This document shows positions 1-39,380 of a DNA stretch of 39,380 nt, one piece after another (position 1 is the first letter of the stretch; every line of letters starts with the position of its first letter). The notes below the pieces were generated by a model. That model was not told the DNA's origin, made no database searches, and saw only the letters and a list, made by a program, of their open reading frames with translations. A program made the position numbers and the translations under genes. The DNA is taken from the IMG/VR virus record IMGVR_UViG_3300045988_151958, positions 1 to 39,380 of that record. The stretch is one strand, 5' to 3'. The stretch comes from a virus.

Positions 1-55
1 AGCGGCGTCAGCCAGCGTCTGCTTACCGGACCGCCTCCATGCAACCGCCTGACGG
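1..55. repeat. 55-nt terminal overlap identical to 39326..39380 (circular closure of the contig or terminal redundancy)
   Basis: agcggcgtcagccagcgtctgcttaccggaccgcctccatgcaaccgcctgacgg occurs exactly at both window ends. Confidence 0.95.
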
Positions 56-2121
56 GCGCGCTTCGTGGCGTGCTCACGCATCAAACGCCCAGCCTCGCGG
101 GTCATTTGGATACGCTGGTAGGCCGGGTTCTCGCTGCCAGCCACACGGTTCTGCAGGTTGGCGATGCGGCGGATCGTGCTCAGCGTGGTTTCGGTCAGGG
201 TGCCGCCCGTACCTCGGATCGTCTGCATACCTTCGTACCAGTTGACCACGGTCAGGCGGGACAGCAGGCCGGAGCTAGATGCGTCGCTCGACAGCAGATG
301 CTCCAGGTAGGCCGGCTGTGTGTCAGCGATCATCGACAGGTAGTAGTGGCGCGGAATCTGGGCACCAGCTTGCGTCAGGGTCAACTCGGCGGGGCTGCCC
401 GGTGCGCGGTCGAACATCTGGATGACCTGCCGCAGCCCCACGGAGCCGACCTGGTCCGTGGCCAGGCGAGCCAGGTCCGTACCGATCTCTGACCAGTGGA
501 TCACACCGGCAGGAATCTGGCTCCGGAGCTTGGCTACAGCCGCGCGACCGCCAACCACAGAAGCTGCCACGGCGCACGCCGGGTTGGCGTCGCTGAACAG
601 GCCTGTGATCACGCTGGCGATGTTCTTGCCGGAGCCGGGAGGGGCGCACAGTACGACGTGGTTCGTGATACCGAACGAGTCGCCTGACGGGCTGCTGAAG
701 TTCCGTGCGGCCAGGCCGGACACGGCCGCCAGCAGGGCACCAGTAGCAAAGTCGACGGGCACGTCACCGCGGACGCTGTTTGCCAGGTCAGAGACTATCT
801 GGCCGGCCAGCCCTGGTGGCAGACCAGCGTTGCCGACCGCCTCCGTCTCGACCACGGCCACGGTGTCTTCAGCAGCCGGAACCTCCTCCGGGGCGTCATT
901 GTTCAGCACGTCCAGCTCGCCAGATTCAACCATCTCGGCGGCGCGGGCAAACATCCGATCCCAGTCGAAGGTCGCGGGCTCGCCGGCAGTCTCTTCAGCT
1001 TCCGTCTCAGTTTCGGCCTCGGTCAACTCATCGATGACGCCATCATCATCGACCGTGTAGCGTGTCGGTGCGGGCGGCTCAGGTTCCGGCTCAGGTTCCG
1101 GCTTCGGCATACGAGCCTCGGCCAGCTGCTTGGTCAGCTCGGCAACCTGGGTTGTGAGGGCCGTCACCCGCTCCAACAGGCGCTGAATCATCGCGTCACG
1201 GGGGTCAACCTTGGTCATCTCGGCTTCGACTTCCTGGACCTTGTCTGCGGCCTTGGCGGCCGGGGTGTCGCAGTATGCCACACCGACGAGGCTTTGCGCC
1301 ATATCCGTCCATTCGGAACCGATCTCGCGGCGCTTCCGCAGGCTGTTGATCGTCCGCTCGACGTAGTTCGTCTTGGCCTTGTCGCGCTGACCCAGGCCAG
1401 ACTTGCGGAACGTTGTAGCCACCACGGAATCGTCGTCGGTGGCCCAGCACAAGGCTTCGATCAAGGCCATGTCGGCCTCAGATTGCGACGGGTAGCCCAT
1501 AGACTGCCAGTCACCAGTCCACAGGCGGCGGACCTTGTCCTGCTTCCACACGCGCTTCAGCGCCTCACGGCAGGCGTCGTCGCTGGCGGAGTCCTGCATC
1601 GTGGCCGCCACCGGCTTCACCGTATTCTTCAGTTCGCCCAGACGGGTTATCAGGCGGTCGATCTTGGCTTGACGGGGCTCTACCACGTCCCAGCCGTTGA
1701 TCACGTTGCCGGTGACAATGATGAACCGCTCCTGGCCATAGACCTCGATGTCCTGCTTCGCGTCACGGACACCGCCAGACAGGTTGGCTTGCACGAAGAT
1801 GTGCGTGCCGCGGCCGCTGCTACTGATCTCGGCATAGGAGTCCAGCCACTCAACCATGGCCATCTGGTCGCCGGCGTAGTCCTCATCCATGTCGACCACG
1901 GTCACCCCACAGCCGGGCGTGAGCAGGGCGCCGACGCGGGCGGACGGACCAAGCGACTTGGCACGCTTCCATGCCTCGGTAGCGGACATCCAGCCGCGTG
2001 TGTCGGTCGTAGACAGAGGCATCCAGCCGCCAGAGGTCGGGGATATACCCCAGGGGCGCTTGTCGCCGTTCGCAGGATTGCGAGCGACACCCCAGTGCTT
2101 GATCAGTTGTGAAAGCTTCAT
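1..2121 (-). CDS. bifunctional DNA primase-polymerase (prim-pol) / P-loop helicase, N-terminal 707 codons; continues across the window end into 38831..39325
   Basis: Manual reverse translation from ATG at 2121: MKLSQLIKHWGVARNPANGDKRPWG... It has prim-pol-like VVDMDED and SSSGRGTHIFV motifs and a Walker A (VVLCAPPGSGKN) near 630. It is open to base 1 and in frame with 39325 downward. It is absent from the ORF track because it runs off the edge. Confidence 0.8.
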   Translation of the reverse strand, partial: MKLSQLIKHWGVARNPANGDKRPWGISPTSGGWMPLSTTDTRGWMSATEAWKRAKSLGPSARVGALLTPGCGVTVVDMDEDYAGDQMAMVEWLDSYAEISSSGRGTHIFVQANLSGGVRDAKQDIEVYGQERFIIVTGNVINGWDVVEPRQAKIDRLITRLGELKNTVKPVAATMQDSASDDACREALKRVWKQDKVRRLWTGDWQSMGYPSQSEADMALIEALCWATDDDSVVATTFRKSGLGQRDKAKTNYVERTINSLRKRREIGSEWTDMAQSLVGVAYCDTPAAKAADKVQEVEAEMTKVDPRDAMIQRLLERVTALTTQVAELTKQLAEARMPKPEPEPEPEPPAPTRYTVDDDGVIDELTEAETETEAEETAGEPATFDWDRMFARAAEMVESGELDVLNNDAPEEVPAAEDTVAVVETEAVGNAGLPPGLAGQIVSDLANSVRGDVPVDFATGALLAAVSGLAARNFSSPSGDSFGITNHVVLCAPPGSGKNIASVITGLFSDANPACAVAASVVGGRAAVAKLRSQIPAGVIHWSEIGTDLARLATDQVGSVGLRQVIQMFDRAPGSPAELTLTQAGAQIPRHYYLSMIADTQPAYLEHLLSSDASSSGLLSRLTVVNWYEGMQTIRGTGGTLTETTLSTIRRIANLQNRVAGSENPAYQRIQMTREAGRLMREHATKRARQAVAWRRSGKQTLADAA

Positions 2122-2868
2122 GTAAAACCCCAGAATGAATCCATGCGTGTATGGTACATGGATACTGACGCGCCGACAAGCTCCATTCGTCAGTCGAGAA
2201 AAGCAGGAACCCCGGGCCGCAGCGCTTTGCACGTCACCTCGGCCATTGGCGTGACCTCGGGCTCTGTGTGCCGCTCATTTGTCCCGGGGTATTACGGACG
2301 CAACCCGCCTCCGTTAGGCAACCACAGGTGCCCGGCCGGAACCACCTGTGACCGCCAATAGCCGCGCCAACGGCTACTGTCCGGAAAGCTCCGTGTGTAG
2401 TGCTACCCCAGCACACGGCCCGGTGTCGGTCTTTGGAGATCGTCGATTGTAACGGAACCCGGAGGGTACTTCGTTCCGGCTGATACGCGCTGACAGCTAG
2501 CTCGCTGCATCACCCTCAGCTGTCCCGGGTCAGCCAGAAGGCTGCCGGAGCTGCAGACACAGTGCCTGCCTATTTCCTACGTACTGCATCGGCGGATTTA
2601 GAGCCCCGGCCTTACCACCGGGGAGTTGTTCCTACCGCCACGTTCTGTGCTCGTTTGGTACTGCATTGCCGGAGTTAGGAGGCCTCGCGCTCTACCCTGA
2701 GACTCGCATCGCCTTGTACCCGACCGGCCGTCTTTACCTTTACCGTTTCAGCCCCGAGATTCCGTTTCTACCATCACCGCCTGGCTCGCAGGCGTCTAAG
2801 CAGTTGCATTCAGGGGCTTCGCATTCATCGCCAGCTACGCCGCCCGGCGGGCTGCCTCGCTGTCGATG
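2122..2868 (-). ncRNA. candidate long structured leader or ncRNA upstream of the primase gene
   Basis: Lies downstream of a consensus promoter. There is no credible ORF on either strand. Many perfect inverted repeats are present (2323-2350, 2359-2376, 2391-2418, 2453-2478, 2492-2524, nested 2591-2639), plus two modules 77 nt apart ending in GTACTGCAT. Confidence 0.35.
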
Positions 2869-2874
2869 GAGTGA

Positions 2875-2903
2875 ACTATACGCGCCTGGCGCAGCACTGT
2901 CAA
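2875..2903 (-). promoter_or_regulatory. sigma70-type promoter, TTGACA-17-TATAGT, firing leftward
   Basis: The reverse complement reads TTGACA (2903-2898), a 17-nt spacer, then TATAGT (2880-2875). The -10 plus downstream TCACTCCATCGAC is shared with the promoters at 22991 and 28766. Confidence 0.65.
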
Positions 2904-3049
2904 TACCATGCGATCACGCGCCGCTCATCCATCGACACACGGTCGCGTCACGCACGCGCGCACGAGGCAATCACAGGTCAATCACACGCCGCGGCAGCGG
3001 TCGGGCAGGAGCGATCCGCAACAGCTTGCGGACGGCTTCCCATTCGCAT

Positions 3050-3079
3050 TTGACAGTTTTTGACAATGCACTCTATAGG
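3050..3079 (+). promoter_or_regulatory. candidate rightward promoter, TTGACA-18-TATAGG, with a second TTGACA at 3060
   Basis: TTGACA at 3050-3055 and 3060-3065, TATAGG at 3074-3079. Located in the AT-rich divergent control region upstream of the structural arm. Confidence 0.4.
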
Positions 3080-3122
3080 AAGACCATATAAAAAAAAAGT
3101 ACTTTCCAAACATTAGACCCCA
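3074..3122. repeat. AT-rich conserved block, copy A (second copy at 25573..25619)
   Basis: TATAGGAAGACCATATAAAAAAAAAGTACTTTCCAAACATTAGACCCCA aligns with TATAGAAGGACATATAAAAAGTATGCATTTTCACACCTTTGACCTCA. Confidence 0.65.
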
Positions 3123-3182
3123 TGTTAAATGTAACGACACACTTTTTAAATCGCTCAGAATCAATGACTTAGACGAAAATCC

Positions 3183-3230
3183 TGTTACAATTTAAGTTGT
3201 AACAAATCGTAAGCATACACTTTGTTACAA
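3183..3230. repeat. three copies of the octamer TGTTACAA (one inverted pair plus one direct copy)
   Basis: TGTTACAA at 3183-3190, TTGTAACA at 3197-3204 (forming a palindrome with a 6-nt spacer), TGTTACAA at 3223-3230. Confidence 0.6.
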
Positions 3231-3328
3231 CTTGAGAAGGGTTCGCAATTGGATGACCATGCTGTACGCACATCCAGTAGCAAGCGATCGCCGGCGGGCG
3301 GCCGCCGCAACGGCTGTGTGTGGCGGAA

Positions 3329-3337
3329 TGGTAGAAT
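3329..3337 (+). promoter_or_regulatory. extended -10 element TGgTAGAAT upstream of terS
   Basis: TGGTAGAAT lies 30 nt upstream of the ATG at 3367. No clear -35. Confidence 0.35.
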
Positions 3338-3366
3338 CGTGGCCGGTACCGAACCCCTGATTTCCG

Positions 3367-3825
3367 ATGAAACCTCCGCACCTGCCGCCCATCAATGAGA
3401 TGGCTCTACGCGAGCACCCGTGGCCCGACATCTTTCAGGGCGTGACCCTGGGCGAGTTTGTGGCCAGCTACCTGATCGACTACAACGGTCGGAAGGCGCT
3501 GCGTCGACTGGGCGTGTGGAAGGGGTGCGAGGCTCATGTGGCCGAGCTCCTGTTGGAGCGTGACGACGTCCAGAACGAGCTGTCGCTCCGTCAGCTGGAG
3601 GTCACCGAGGCCAACATGGCTGCCATCCGTGCGCGAGCCATGCAGGGGCTGTATCAACTGGCCCTCGGGGCTGAGTCAGAGTCTGTCCGTCTGCAGGCCC
3701 TGGGGCGTCTGCTGGATGTGACTGGCGGGGCTACCGCGAAGGTGGAGCAGATGGACCTGTCCGACACCGAGTCCACCCAGATCAAGGAGGCTCTGGCCGC
3801 CATCGGCAGGGCACCCGTCCTGTGA
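3367..3825 (+). CDS. terS: terminase small subunit (putative)
   Basis: 152 aa. FVASYLIDYNGRKALRRLGV resembles the Terminase_2 N-terminal signature. Lies immediately upstream of and overlaps terL. Confidence 0.65.
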   Translation: MKPPHLPPINEMALREHPWPDIFQGVTLGEFVASYLIDYNGRKALRRLGVWKGCEAHVAELLLERDDVQNELSLRQLEVTEANMAAIRARAMQGLYQLALGAESESVRLQALGRLLDVTGGATAKVEQMDLSDTESTQIKEALAAIGRAPVL

Positions 3826-5249
3826 AAGCCGATGCGCTCGCAACCCAGCTGCTCCGGGAGTACGCCACGCGGTCGCTCCGAAGCTTCGTGGGTGTCTTCT
3901 GGCCCGTGCTGGAGAATGACCGCCCAATCGCCTGGGGCTGGGCCCTTGACGCCATGTGCGAGCATCTGGAGGCCGTGTCTCGCGGGGAGATCACGCGGCT
4001 GGTGATCAACGTTCCACCGGGCTCGATGAAGTCCCTGCTGGTGAGCGTGATGTGGCCGGCCTGGGAGTGGGCTTGCGGTCGTCCGAACCTGAAGTTCATC
4101 GGCGTCGCGCACAACACGCAGCTCAGCGCCCGCGACGCCCGCAAGATGCGACGGCTGGTGCAGTCGCCTGAGTATCGTCAGCTGTTCCCGCACGTGGAGC
4201 TGACGAAGGACCAGAACAGCAAGATCAACTTCGAGACGACAGCCTATGGCCAGCGCGTGTGCATGGCATTCCGGAACATGACGGGCGAGCGGGGAGACCG
4301 TGTGATCATCGATGACCCGATGACCGTGGAGGACGCTTTCTCCCGGGCTGCCATCGAGGAGGCCGGCCGCATCTTCAATGAGACGGTACCAAGCCGTGTC
4401 AACGACAGCAAGTCGGCCATCGTGATGATCATGCAGCGCATCCACGAGTCGGACCCGGCTGCCATCGCCCTGTCCGACCCGGCCTACGAGAAGCTGATCA
4501 TCCCGATGCGCTGGGACTCGAAGTTCGTCAACAACACCGCCCGCTTCACGGACCCCCGGACCGGCGGGCCGGAGGGTGCCCTGTTCTTCCCGGAGCGATT
4601 CGACGCCGCCGCAGTCGAGGCACTGGAGCGCCGCCTCGGCCCCTACGGCTCAGCCAGCCAGCTCCAGCAGCAGCCGGCCCCGCGGTCGGGCGGATACCTT
4701 GATCCGACGAACATCGTGGTGGTGCCCGATGGCTCGATCCTGCCGCAGCTCCGCCTGTGTCGGGGCTGGGACCTAGCTGCTACGGAGGGGGCAGGCGACT
4801 ACACGGTGGGGGCGCTCGTGGGTATCCACGATGAGACCGGCCGCGTGTACCTGATGGACGTAGTCCGGGGCCAGTGGGGCTCTGCCAAGGTGGATGCGAC
4901 AATCAAGCGTGTGGCTGCCATGGATGGCCCGCTGGTGGAGCAATCACTGCCGATCGACCCGGGTGCTGCCGGCAAGCGGGCGGCAGACCAGTACGCGATC
5001 GCCCTGACTGGGTACGCCGTTCATACGTCGCGGGAAACCGGCGACAAGATGACTCGCGCCCGGCCGCTGTCCAGCATCGTGCAGGATGGGCGCTTCCACG
5101 TCGTCTGCTCGCCAGAGATGGCCCGTCCGGTGTTGGACGAGTTTGCCGCAGCTCCTGTCGGCAAGCACGATGATACAATTGACGCCATCTCGCGCGCCCT
5201 GAACCGTCTGACGGAGACGGCCGCGTTTCAACTGACGGGGCTCCTGTGA
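3822..5249 (+). CDS. terL: terminase large subunit
   Basis: 475 aa. Walker-A-like PPGSMKS, Walker-B-like RVIIDDP, C-terminal nuclease-type HDDTIDA. Start overlaps the terS stop. Confidence 0.85.
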   Translation: MKADALATQLLREYATRSLRSFVGVFWPVLENDRPIAWGWALDAMCEHLEAVSRGEITRLVINVPPGSMKSLLVSVMWPAWEWACGRPNLKFIGVAHNTQLSARDARKMRRLVQSPEYRQLFPHVELTKDQNSKINFETTAYGQRVCMAFRNMTGERGDRVIIDDPMTVEDAFSRAAIEEAGRIFNETVPSRVNDSKSAIVMIMQRIHESDPAAIALSDPAYEKLIIPMRWDSKFVNNTARFTDPRTGGPEGALFFPERFDAAAVEALERRLGPYGSASQLQQQPAPRSGGYLDPTNIVVVPDGSILPQLRLCRGWDLAATEGAGDYTVGALVGIHDETGRVYLMDVVRGQWGSAKVDATIKRVAAMDGPLVEQSLPIDPGAAGKRAADQYAIALTGYAVHTSRETGDKMTRARPLSSIVQDGRFHVVCSPEMARPVLDEFAAAPVGKHDDTIDAISRALNRLTETAAFQLTGLL

Positions 5250-24392: not shown

Positions 24393-24518
24393 TCACTCCT
24401 GTGAATGTTTGATGGCTTGCTCGAAGCGCTTGATGATCGAGCGCGCATGAAGCTCCATCAGGCCGAATACGACCAGGATGAAGCCGAAGAAGCCGAGGAT
24501 GAAGAGAAGCGGGTGCAT
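24393..24518 (-). CDS. 41-aa single-pass membrane protein (below the ORF-track cutoff)
   Basis: MHPLLFILGFFGFILVVFGLMELHARSIIKRFEQAIKHSQE, with a GGAGG RBS 8 nt upstream. Confidence 0.5.
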   Translation of the reverse strand: MHPLLFILGFFGFILVVFGLMELHARSIIKRFEQAIKHSQE

Positions 24519-24660
24519 ATGAATGCCTCCAGAAGGCTCCAGAGCGGCCGTAGCGCGTTTCTGGCTTGCGGCCAGGGTGATTGCCTTGCCAAGGGTTAAA
24601 AACGTCGCCACGGGCTTTCTGGCAAGTCCAAGCCGCTTTCGCCGCAAGGTGTTGAAGCGA

Positions 24661-24689
24661 ATGATGAGCGATCGCGACCACGCCGTCAA
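24661..24689 (-). promoter_or_regulatory. candidate promoter, TTGACG-17-CATCAT
   Basis: The -35 contains the stop codon of 24686..25459. It is preceded by a CGACGAGCGGC motif at the same spacing as at 23019 and 36104. Confidence 0.4.
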
Positions 24690-25459
24690 CGGCCGCTCGT
24701 CGGGTTCCCGGCGGCGTTCTTGACCCAGGTCACGAAAGCCTCGATGGCCAGCCGCTGTGCAAGCAGTATGGACGGGTCGGCATCGTAGTCTGCCCGCACG
24801 CGAAGAATCTTCTTGACCGGGCTGCCGCGGGAGCCGTCTCCGTGCTCCGCGCCGCGCGTCAGGCGCCACCCCGGGGGTACGGGAGCCGTGCCCGACGACA
24901 TGGCCCTGCCGACCGCGCTGGCGGCCTTGTAGAGCACGCGATGACCCTTGTCTGTGGTGAGCGCCCAGTACAGGTCACGGCGGGGGCTGTGGGGCTTGTG
25001 TGGCTGTGGCTTGGCAGGTTGCTTGGGTTCGGCCGCCTTCTTGGCGGGTTCCTGGTACGCGGCCACAGGGTGGGACCAGCCGTCGGGACTGCCGGTGGCG
25101 AATGTGGATGCCTCGGCATACAGGCGAGCGCGCAGCTCGGCCACAGATGCCGCAACATCCCGTGGCATGCCTCGGCCATTTAGCCAGCCCTGTACACGGC
25201 GGCGGAGGGCACGGAGCAGGTCCCCATCGCTTCGTTTGGCCATCAGGCTCGGTCTGGGCTTGGCCAGGGTTGCAATCAGGGACTTGTTGCCATCCTCCAG
25301 GGCGTCCGGCCACAGGTTCAGCAAGACGACATGCCACCCGGTTGGTAGATCGCTTGATCTCGTTACGTACTTGCTTGCCGGCACACGGGATGCGTAAAGC
25401 ACGGATGTCGGAACAAGCACAGGGGTGGCAAGCAAGGGGGGTGTGGGGCTACGTGTCAT
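24686..25459 (-). CDS. hypothetical protein, first gene downstream of the origin-like region
   Basis: 257 aa with a strong AAGGAGG RBS. Basic, with a Pro/Lys/Ala linker. Confidence 0.6.
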   Translation of the reverse strand: MTRSPTPPLLATPVLVPTSVLYASRVPASKYVTRSSDLPTGWHVVLLNLWPDALEDGNKSLIATLAKPRPSLMAKRSDGDLLRALRRRVQGWLNGRGMPRDVAASVAELRARLYAEASTFATGSPDGWSHPVAAYQEPAKKAAEPKQPAKPQPHKPHSPRRDLYWALTTDKGHRVLYKAASAVGRAMSSGTAPVPPGWRLTRGAEHGDGSRGSPVKKILRVRADYDADPSILLAQRLAIEAFVTWVKNAAGNPTSGR

Positions 25460-25491
25460 GAGTGCCTCCTTGGGCGAGTTTTGACCCGGCC

Positions 25492-25520
25492 ATGGTACTA
25501 GCCCGGCGACGGGGTGTCAA
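25492..25520 (-). promoter_or_regulatory. sigma70-type promoter, TTGACA-17-TACCAT
   Basis: The reverse complement reads TTGACA (25520-25515), a 17-nt spacer, then TACCAT (25497-25492). The -35 abuts iteron 1. Confidence 0.5.
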
Positions 25521-25570
25521 CCAACTTAGTCATTACCCTCCCCAAAACCAACTTAGTCATTACCCTCCCC
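25519..25570. repeat. two direct 25-nt iterons, AACCAACTTAGTCATTACCCTCCCC
   Basis: Exact copies at 25519-25543 and 25546-25570 (27-nt period). Confidence 0.9.
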
Positions 25571-25572
25571 TT

Positions 25573-25619
25573 TATAGAAGGACATATAAAAAGTATGCAT
25601 TTTCACACCTTTGACCTCA
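25573..25619. repeat. AT-rich conserved block, copy B (see 3074..3122)
   Basis: Bracketed by iteron 2 and the inverted iteron 3. Confidence 0.65.
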
Positions 25620-25622
25620 CAA

Positions 25623-25643
25623 GGGAGGGTAATGACTAAGTTG
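25623..25643. repeat. inverted third iteron copy, GGGAGGGTAATGACTAAGTTG
   Basis: Exact reverse complement of the 21-nt iteron core CAACTTAGTCATTACCCTCCC. Confidence 0.9.
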
Positions 25644-25783
25644 TAGAATGGCTTGTAGAGCCAATCCCGGGTGTCGTACTTAGTGTTCACAAATTACTAT
25701 TCGACTCCCATCCCACAACTCTCAAAAATTAGTATTTACTTTGACCCTACTGCCAGTATGGGTAATTTCATGTTGGAACGGGC

Positions 25784-25807
25784 AAAAAAATAGCCCCCGA
25801 AGGGGCT
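25784..25807 (-). terminator. rho-independent terminator
   Basis: On the - strand, AGCCCC-TTCG-GGGGCT followed by ATTTTTTT. Confidence 0.8.
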
Positions 25808-25815
25808 CCGTAGCC

Positions 25816-25835
25816 TGTGGATAACCTGTGGATAA
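25816..25835. promoter_or_regulatory. two tandem perfect DnaA boxes
   Basis: TGTGGATAA at 25816-25824 and 25827-25835 is the reverse complement of the TTATCCACA consensus. Spacing is 11 bp. Confidence 0.7.
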
Positions 25836-25842
25836 CTCAGGT

Positions 25843-26325
25843 TCAGAAGGGCAGTTCTCCGGTCGAATCCGACCCATCTTCGGGCGGTGTGATCGCCCCT
25901 TTAGGCACTGTGATTGCATCCTCCGGGCGGGACTGGCCGGACCAGTCGGGGCTCCCCTCCGGGTTGTGTCGGGTCGGCCTCAGCGGGGCCGGATGGCCTG
26001 CCGGCCGGTCCTTGGATTGCGCCACCGTGTGCTCGCCATCAGAGGCCTGTGCCGCGCCCCGGATCAGCAGCATGGCACCCTTGGCTCCCAGCTCGCCGCC
26101 CATGTCCGCCTTCATGGCAGCCAGCAGCCGGCGGCAGTAGGCTGCCGACACGTGGATGCAGATCAGCTCTGCCTCATCGGGCGGTGTGGTCGATTCCTTC
26201 TCGATCCGGTACATCAGGGCGCCCGTGCCCGAATCGTGGTACTGGCACACCCGGCAGGCGCCAAAGTCCGGATCGCCTTCCTGGCCAGCCACAGGCGTGT
26301 CCGACGTCCAGTCGGTGGCGCTCAT
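25843..26325 (-). CDS. hypothetical protein with a disordered C-terminus ending in GELPF
   Basis: 160 aa. ATGA overlap with the upstream gene. The C-terminal third is Pro/Gly/Asp-rich. Confidence 0.55.
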   Translation of the reverse strand: MSATDWTSDTPVAGQEGDPDFGACRVCQYHDSGTGALMYRIEKESTTPPDEAELICIHVSAAYCRRLLAAMKADMGGELGAKGAMLLIRGAAQASDGEHTVAQSKDRPAGHPAPLRPTRHNPEGSPDWSGQSRPEDAITVPKGAITPPEDGSDSTGELPF

Positions 26326-38830: not shown

Positions 38831-39380
38831 TTAGACGCTGTACATGCTGGGGTTGTAGGGGGTCATCAGCAGGTAGGCGAGGCCGCCGCCTTGCTTGCCG
38901 ATCTTGATCTTGCGGATCACGCCAAAGTCCCGCTCCATCACGGCCAGCACGCGGCTGATCATCAGACGGTCATCCTGGCCGGCCTTCTTGATGATGCGGC
39001 TCAGCTTCGGGTTGCGGGCCACGATGGTCTGAATCAGCGAGGCGGGCAGCATGTTCTCGGTCGGCAGGTCCTGTGGCTGCAGGCCGTGCAGCAGCTCGCT
39101 ACGAGGGTTCGTAGTGACATCGGTCATGCAGCGGTGCAGGGTCTCGCTGACGAGCGTGCTGGTCGACTTGTCGGCCTCGGCGATGTCCTGGCGCATCAGC
39201 TCCAGGTGCTTGGCCACGAACTGGATAGCCCAGGCTGCGATGTCCTCGGTTATCTGTGGTGCCATCGTGTTGTTGATGATCGCCACAGCCGTGGCCAGGC
39301 GCTCCACACGGGCGTGCACACGGGCAGCGGCGTCAGCCAGCGTCTGCTTACCGGACCGCCTCCATGCAACCGCCTGACGG
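38831..39380 (-). CDS. C-terminal part of the same prim-pol/helicase gene (total about 871 aa after removing the 55-nt overlap)
   Basis: The track ORF 38831..39319 begins at an internal GTG. Reading ...KQTLADAAARVHARVERLATAV is continuous across the junction and the frame is preserved (2121 is divisible by 3; 39325 and 39319 are in phase). Confidence 0.75.
   Translation of the reverse strand, partial: RQAVAWRRSGKQTLADAAARVHARVERLATAVAIINNTMAPQITEDIAAWAIQFVAKHLELMRQDIAEADKSTSTLVSETLHRCMTDVTTNPRSELLHGLQPQDLPTENMLPASLIQTIVARNPKLSRIIKKAGQDDRLMISRVLAVMERDFGVIRKIKIGKQGGGLAYLLMTPYNPSMYSV
39326..39380. repeat. second copy of the 55-nt terminal overlap
   Basis: Exact match to bases 1-55. Confidence 0.95.

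Follow-up and report, generated by a model that had tools for sequence, protein, structure and literature searches.

The window analysed in this study is the whole of a 39,380-nucleotide (nt) stretch of viral DNA (IMG/VR record IMGVR_UViG_3300045988_151958), a circularly permuted phage genome of ~39 kb with a GC content of 65%. Its divergent primase and terS (small terminase subunit) genes are separated by a gap of 1245 nt, and the region 2122-2868 within this gap is proposed to hold a separate RNA gene, i.e., a gene for a highly structured minus-strand RNA of ~670 nt that would act as a folded particle (probability roughly 0.6). That a real, selected RNA structure exists in this region is regarded as highly probable. 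A large structured minus-strand RNA had been the leading reading of an earlier note, which was made from the letters of the window, and this reading is now supported by compensatory pairing among relatives, by an asymmetry of G–U pairs between the two strands and by a conserved promoter.

Non-coding character and predicted ends of the RNA

Primase searches recovered 14 viral contigs and 13 metagenome loci, to which protein look-ups added two loci, and the intergenic region of these relatives occurs in 19 distinct versions (relatives are referred to below by designations such as L001). The divergent terS/primase arrangement is kept at every locus that extends far enough, with a terS–primase gap of 1033-1371 nt and a distance from the promoter to the primase ATG of 509 to 888 nt, and sub-domains of the RNA are inserted, deleted or replaced as wholes among these sequences. 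The type B relatives L013 and L014 have primases that are only 76% and 56% identical, respectively, and short RNAs that align poorly to the rest. At the 5′ end of the L013 RNA, a 5′ hairpin module (GGCGAGCGAAAAAUCUCGGCCUGC...) is tandemly duplicated in comparison with L014.

The absence of coding sequence from 2122-2868, as claimed in the earlier note, is upheld by composition, by substitutions and by the lengths of indels. Between 2122 and ~3050, the three codon phases give a flat GC profile, compared with ~0.84/0.40/0.65 in the flanking genes, and the longest non-periodic stretch of the genome is 1981-3450. Variable sites among relatives are spread 112/112/108 over the three phases in the RNA region (p=0.95), i.e., the homologous regions show no 3-nt periodic conservation, compared with 92/64/243 (p=5e-31) in the first 1000 nt of the primase gene. 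Indel lengths in the RNA region, taken modulo 3, leave a remainder of 1 in 89 cases, of 2 in 53 and of 0 in 15. An automatic gene caller set an open reading frame (ORF) of 225 aa on the opposite strand within the RNA of one relative (L119, 1596-2273), and false ORFs of this kind would conceal such an RNA from scans of intergenic regions.

The predicted transcript and the promoters that bear on it are as follows:

2875..2903, minus strand: sigma-70 promoter, with the −35 element TTGACA at 2903..2898, a 17-nt spacer and the −10 element TATAGT at 2880..2875
2198..2868, minus strand: whole predicted non-coding RNA, ~670 nt, both ends predicted
2151..2179, minus strand: weak promoter-like site for the primase (TTGTCG-17-TACCAT), read from the sequence and from alignments

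The promoter at 2903..2875 agrees with the consensus at 11/12 positions, and nowhere in the window is there a better sigma-70 match, so that its earlier description as near-perfect holds. The motif TTGAC-N17-19-GTA[TC]AGTTC is found in 19/19 distinct related sequences, L013 and L014 included, and the promoter is thus conserved even where the primase is only 56-76% identical. The predicted start at ~2868 falls on the first base of P1, a hairpin described below. A 10-nt inverted repeat that flanks the promoter (2861-2870 with 2928-2937) is not conserved and was dropped as having a role.

At the 3′ end of the RNA, UUUU (2201..2198) comes after a composite terminal stem. All relatives have a U-rich run behind the equivalent stem, and the terminators of L013 and L014 are compact and canonical. 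The terminal stem and U-run (2309..2198) are predicted to form a terminator. The earlier note had the transcribed region reach the primase ATG; instead, the RNA would end near 2198, at the stem and U-run, and be followed by the second, weak promoter at 2179..2151. This second site scored below the threshold of the promoter scan, and the equivalent primase promoter, located between the RNA and the primase, is near-consensus in four relatives (L009, L012, L013 and L014). Because of this terminator-like end and the distinct primase promoter, a separate RNA gene is preferred to a plain leader. In the 5′ untranslated region of the primase (2140-2166), a 7-bp hairpin (AUCCAUG...CAUGGAU) overlaps the weak −10 element and is kept in the closest relatives.

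In the mechanism proposed here, host RNA polymerase would start near 2868 from the strongest sigma-70 promoter of the phage, and most transcripts would probably stop at the composite stem and U-run. The RNA would then be a transcription unit of its own, the first in the replication operon, and in this phage, whose own primase promoter is weak, polymerase probably reads through into the primase gene to some extent.

Comparative evidence for the fold

The inverted repeats reported previously (among them 2323-2330/2343-2350, 2359-2364/2371-2376, and the nested 2591-2595/2635-2639 around 2604-2609/2618-2623) were found again, and the repeated modules correspond to a direct repeat, 2581-2601/2658-2678, of 21 nt with 86% identity, 77 nt apart. 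The folding energy, however, is no better than that of shuffled sequences (z = +0.45 for the minus strand, +0.04 for the plus strand), in disagreement with what the earlier note had expected of a structured RNA. Hairpin density is thus not above chance for the composition, and the case rests on comparison with relatives. A lack of function, with the region as the remnant of a decayed gene or as a GC-rich spacer whose hairpins arose by chance, would agree with this energy and with the ORFs that gene callers put here (e.g., the 225-aa ORF in L119), yet codon periodicity is seen neither in composition nor in substitutions, compensatory changes are far above controls, and the loops and promoter are invariant across diverged relatives; this explanation is scarcely credible.

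RNAalifold applied to a full-length MAFFT alignment gave a poor structure because variable inserts were misaligned, and the work was then done domain by domain. Long-range matches from a strict helix finder (e.g., AACG with CGUU) were spurious, arising from misaligned type B sequences, and were dropped. As read by comparison, the fold is composed of a conserved 5′ domain (P1-P4), a lineage-specific centre and a 3′ three-way-junction domain. The features of the 3′ domain are the following:

2310..2385, minus strand: three-way junction, in which P6 (2385..2382 with 2313..2310) closes H_a (2379..2356) and H_b (2355..2318)
2365..2370, minus strand: H_a loop UUGGCG, one kissing-loop arm; the kissing helix is 100% paired
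2246..2251, minus strand: P10 loop CGCCAA, the other kissing-loop arm, from the covariation test
2333..2338, minus strand: palindrome CGGCCG of the H_b apical loop, from comparison of 17 type A sequences
2198..2309, minus strand: terminal domain, with GGCGGG (2309..2304) paired with CCUGCU (2207..2202) and ACCCCGG (2290..2284) with CCGGGGU (2215..2209)

A hand-refined structure covering 2386..2192 of the window was tested on an alignment of 13 sequences. Its 59 pairs are formed in 93.2% of cells, compared with 35-44% when the partners are slid by 1-3 columns. The compensatory base changes whose absence would, according to the earlier note, have refuted such an RNA were found, with 27/59 pairs changing on both sides against 9.9 ± 2.1 in shuffles (0/500), a contrast that is inflated because the compared sequences are related. 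The composite terminal stem, which encloses P8-P11 ahead of the U-run, is supported by covariation, and in the P10 stem (2256..2252 with 2245..2241) 5/5 pairs change on both sides. A pairing of ACGGA (2314..2310) with UCCGU (2298..2294), taken from a single-sequence fold, is broken in L008 and L009 and was rejected, P6 and GGCGGG/CCUGCU being supported instead.

The strand from which the RNA is read is indicated by the same test, in which 78 G–U cells were counted in the 3′ structure against 10 A–C cells, and this excess shows that the RNA is read from the minus strand, as the earlier note had claimed. The three pairs flanking the 8-bp stem, which it had described as G–U on the minus strand, are seen in the structure, and the U–G pair in the 2391-2418 hairpin that it had counted on the other side, 2398/2411, is a terminal pair that is simply unformed on the minus strand. 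The hairpins could instead work in DNA, as a single-stranded replication element (an origin or a priming signal for the primase-helicase), and the region does adjoin the primase-helicase gene and is inherited with it, while hairpin covariation by itself does not separate DNA from RNA. However, the 78 G–U against 10 A–C cells fit pairing in an RNA of one strand, a conserved promoter stands exactly at the 5′ end and a stem with a U-run at the 3′ end, known priming signals are without long-range helices or a kissing loop, and the repeat motifs at 2969-2987, which lie upstream of the promoter, make stronger candidates for an origin. The cis replication element raised in the earlier note is therefore unlikely to be the RNA itself, given its G–U bias, promoter and terminator-like end, and a DNA element of this kind is considered very improbable.

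The kissing loop joins the H_a loop to the P10 loop through 6 bp, UUGGCG with CGCCAA, which are invariant in most relatives and which covary in others (UUGACG/CGUCAA in L009, UGGCGG/CCGCCA in L013 and UGGCAC/GUGCCA in L014). In L013, the loop UGGCGG faces two CCGCCA loops, and in L014 the loop UGGCAC faces two GUGCCA loops; in each case, the apical loop of the terminator hairpin supplies one of the two partners. In the window, a single partner loop is conserved, and a second copy of UUGGCG (2358..2353) is not. The H_b apical loop reads CGGCCG in 14/17 type A sequences, GUGCAC in L009 and CUGCAG in L012, above a stem whose sequence varies, and in L037 it reads CGGCCA, which is non-palindromic and keeps the GGCC core. 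A pairing of the H_b loop, CCGGCCG, with the 5′ motif CGGCCGG was rejected, since L037 changes the 5′ motif along with its P3 partner and not along with the loop. On the strength of these sequence comparisons, both the kissing loop and the palindromic apical loop are maintained by selection. Switching from palindrome to palindrome marks symmetric intermolecular kissing loops in OLE and GOLLD (PMC12286853), and by analogy the RNA described here may associate with itself.

The 5′ and central features of the RNA are the following:

2827..2867, minus strand: P1, a long 5′-terminal hairpin (AUCG-CAGC-GGCAGCC ... GGC-GCUG-CGAU) of 15 pairs, with 93% of cells paired and mostly invariant
2750..2818, minus strand: P2 domain, AGCCCC (2818..2813) with GGGGCU (2755..2750), which encloses hairpin P2a (2794..2778)
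2668..2728, minus strand: P3, GCCGG (2728..2724) with CCGGC (2672..2668), which closes an inserted element
2591..2639, minus strand: P4 (GGCGG/CCGCC) with nested P4a (CCCCGG/CCGGGG), in which the UGGUAAGG loop and internal loops are conserved
2389..2590, minus strand: central variable domain, which holds the previously noted hairpins 2391-2418, 2453-2478 and 2492-2524

The 5′ helices tested (P1, P2a, P3, P4 and P4a) are 96.2% paired, compared with 24-43% in slid controls; they vary little, and only four pairs change on both sides. P2a is 100% paired, with one pair changing on both sides. P2 was read from the alignment, i.e., AGCCCC/GGGGCU in the window against GCACCCCG/CGGGGUGC in L001, and was left out of the formal count because the alignment register was shifted by one column. 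The P3 motif CGGCCGGUC is near-invariant, type B relatives included, and L037 carries a compensatory change, GCUGG/CCAGC; the element that P3 closes is a large branched hairpin in the window or a small tetraloop hairpin in relatives. When P4 and P4a are scored over 15 sequences, 163/165 cells are paired and 5/11 pairs change on both sides. The central domain is swapped for a different sequence in other subgroups.

A proposed separate gene linked to the replication module

The RNA could alternatively be a cis-acting leader or attenuator of the primase operon, in which loop pairing in cis or in trans would set the choice between stopping and read-through, cf. the CI RNA, seqA and seqC of phage P4. 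In P4, transcription is halted before the primase gene when a small RNA, cut from the leader, pairs with two sites in that leader (PMC4825925). The RNA described here lies on the same strand as the primase gene and directly upstream of it, it always co-occurs with this primase, and it is fed by the strongest promoter of the genome, while the own promoter of the primase is weak in the window. One arm of the kissing loop, moreover, lies in the terminal domain and is the terminator apical loop in L013 and L014, where a loop with two complementary partners resembles the arrangement of seqA and seqC. However, ~670 nt and at least a dozen conserved helices are far beyond the needs of known attenuators, four relatives have a near-consensus primase promoter past the terminator, so that read-through is unneeded there, and no described antisense or leader RNA family is matched in Rfam. 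Moreover, no integrase or repressor was found among the 20 proteins scanned, which makes a P4-like lysogenic immunity unlikely. The leader put forward in the earlier note is thus weakened by the stem and U-run of all relatives and by the four near-consensus primase promoters; the part of it that stands is read-through, which is likely in this phage. On this evidence, an attenuator is a possible but rather doubtful account of the whole RNA.

Other points also weigh against a separate RNA gene of the kind proposed. Both ends of the RNA are predictions, a 68-nt insert breaks the terminal stem, after which come only four U residues, and a simple terminator scan of the window did not flag the 2309..2198 site. 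With a weak primase promoter in this phage, the strong upstream promoter may serve the primase by read-through, in which case the RNA would be partly a leader. The equality of the folding energy with that of shuffled sequences also counts on this side and is outweighed by the comparative evidence. The version of the central domain found here is common only to close relatives and offers too little variation for a test of structure, and the family is small, with ~21 contigs from a single phage clade. Self-association is proposed by analogy, and the changes in the palindrome could also be explained by a closing pair around a GGCC/UGCA tetraloop.

The distribution of the RNA follows that of the primase. 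Searched with a covariance model of the 3′ domain, the window gives one copy (223.8 bits); further copies turn up only in members of this clade, with none in ~65 loci around more distant TerL relatives. The RNA is present at every locus that has this primase and enough upstream sequence; L036, which is cut 34 bases upstream of the primase gene, was left out of this count. L044, by contrast, shares the terminase with the window (TerL 96% and TerS 80% identical) and has neither the RNA nor this primase, which places the RNA in the replication module rather than in the packaging module; a packaging role was rejected on these grounds. At L044 1-3500, a wholly different co-directional coding region lies upstream of terS, with a clear module exchange at the junction. 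The RNA is thus inherited along with the primase module. The cultured Stenotrophomonas phage Bhz54 and Pseudomonas phage JG054, whose primases are ~30% identical, have no long gap upstream of the primase. Among 185,579 species genomes, two scans of bacterial genomes with the primase brought up no prophage copy. Phage and plasmid records searched with blastn gave no match to the RNA, and further DNA pattern scans added no viral contig to those found before.

Comparison with Rfam at curated thresholds, GOLLD, ROOL and OLE included, gave no family in the window or in eight relatives, and for these three RNAs no weak match was seen in the window or relatives at E up to 10; the Rfam search suggested in the earlier note thus gave no family in the window at either curated or loose thresholds. 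No tRNA or tmRNA was found in the window, and one tRNA, far from the RNA, was found in 14 related loci. The only result from Rfam, below threshold, lies in L009, where 4307-4342 (GUAGCACCCGGCAACGCGUCGUGUGUGGAUUGAAAC), with GUAGC...GGAUUGAAAC ends, scores 31.4 bits against CRISPR-DR9, and in many relatives GAAAC comes after a hairpin at the corresponding place. The RNA might accordingly be imagined as a CRISPR-related decoy or mini-array, i.e., an RNA with a CRISPR-repeat-like unit that interferes with host CRISPR-Cas. However, the family threshold is 45 bits, which this score does not reach, and the match sits within an insertion that is specific to L009 and L012, of which L012 is without the GGAUUGAAAC end. 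Nor does the window have such a match, and there is no second copy of the repeat. A decoy of this type is extremely unlikely.

The genes on either side of the RNA are the following:

1..2121, minus strand: primase/helicase gene, the first protein gene of the replication operon; its C-terminal part is at 38831-39319
3367-3825, plus strand: TerS (small terminase subunit) gene
3822-5249, plus strand: TerL (large terminase subunit) gene

The primase/helicase gene is cut by the ends of the window (1-2121 / 38831-39319), and its split across them identifies the window as a circular permutation of the genome; the frame is not exactly continuous over the junction. After the primase, the minus strand encodes RusA, a Sak4-like protein, a Cas4-type exonuclease, a helicase, a methyltransferase, a dNMP kinase and a DNA polymerase exonuclease subunit, and the structural protein genes are on the plus strand, like those of TerS and TerL. 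In the minus-strand early region, 24450-26320 shows patches of weak codon periodicity and a lower GC content (53-62%), and the ORFs called there are without a PHROGs match.

At 2967-2989, just upstream of the RNA promoter, the plus strand carries CAATCACA twice in direct orientation (read as TGTGATTG on the minus strand), 11 nt apart, and relatives have one to three copies of related motifs, e.g., CTGTGATTGCC and CTGTGCACGCC; these repeats could be binding sites for replication origin or packaging functions. Further upstream, the AT-rich block 3050-3240 (32-45% GC), which is highly conserved across relatives, contains TGTTACAA/TTGTAACA inverted repeats at 3183-3204 and at 3194-3211 with 3216-3233, together with a promoter-like site on the plus strand at 3164-3191, and is a possible operator, packaging site or origin. 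At 3051-3080, on the plus strand toward terS, a tandem TTGACA...TTGACA followed by TATAGG is kept in relatives, and this site was not flagged as a sigma-70 promoter.

Comparison with known RNA systems

Among phage RNAs with loop–loop contacts, the pRNA of phi29, which is ~170 nt long and whose gene is near the packaging genes, forms rings through covarying intermolecular loop–loop pairing. The RNA described here differs in that packaging is independent of it, as L044 shows, and in having no Rfam match. The ~550-nt RNA II of ColE1 is a structured transcript beside replication functions and acts through loop–loop kissing with RNA I. RNA II, however, ends as a primer hybrid at the origin and is under the control of an antisense RNA, whereas the RNA described here would end at a stem and U-run, and the promoter scan found no antisense promoter in the RNA region.

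The c4 antisense RNAs of P1 and P7 are related to the P4 CI RNA and share with it a pairing embedded in the leader. Like the CI RNA with seqA and seqC, the RNA described here occupies a same-strand untranslated region upstream of replication (primase) genes. In P4, short complementary elements pair within one transcript family and differ in a covarying manner from one related phage to another (PMC4825925), and the kissing-loop arms of the present RNA resemble them in this; an element with two partners is seen in L013 and L014, and a single partner in the window. In contrast, the CI and c4 RNAs are shorter than 100 nt and belong to temperate elements, while the RNA here has ~670 nt and many further conserved helices, in a genome with no lysogeny genes among the proteins scanned.

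Very few large, elaborate RNAs of bacteria and phages are known beyond ribosomal RNA, RNase P and introns, and such RNA genes are overlooked because folding-energy tests fail on GC-rich sequence and gene callers add false ORFs. GOLLD, ROOL and OLE, to which the RNA described here is unrelated in sequence, have been informative in that they proved to form RNA-only assemblies. OLE, like the present RNA, is ornate and of similar scale (~600 nt), and it dimerizes via a palindromic kissing loop that switches palindromes (PMC12286853), as the H_b loop does among CGGCCG, GUGCAC and CUGCAG. OLE is, however, a chromosomal RNA of Bacillota that works with proteins, and no Rfam match links the two.

The likeness to GOLLD and ROOL lies in being phage-encoded, non-coding, 500-800 nt long and rich in helices supported by covariation, as well as in the combination of conserved and variable parts and in conserved kissing loops (PMC12286853). 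The trait of a non-coding multi-domain structure of more than 500 nt backed by covariation is found in the RNA described here. It differs from them in having neither a sequence or structure match in Rfam nor nearby tRNA genes, and in heading a replication operon in a high-GC phage with sigma-70 promoters of the proteobacterial type. The palindromic loop variants and the two-partner loops of L013 and L014 are indirect signs that it might assemble with itself.

The RNA is proposed to work as a folded particle and not as a message, with loop–loop contacts that would hold the fold together and would probably also link molecules, or let one molecule act on another nascent copy. A more specific idea, i.e., a new class of self-assembling phage RNA that combines palindromic and hetero kissing loops in an RNA-only particle working with or controlling the primase-helicase module, is speculative and judged unlikely; if true, it would be the first link of natural RNA quaternary structure to phage DNA replication. 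In comparison with GOLLD and ROOL, the function of the RNA described here should be more approachable because of its clear predicted ends, its strong comparative support and its defined genetic partner, the primase module.

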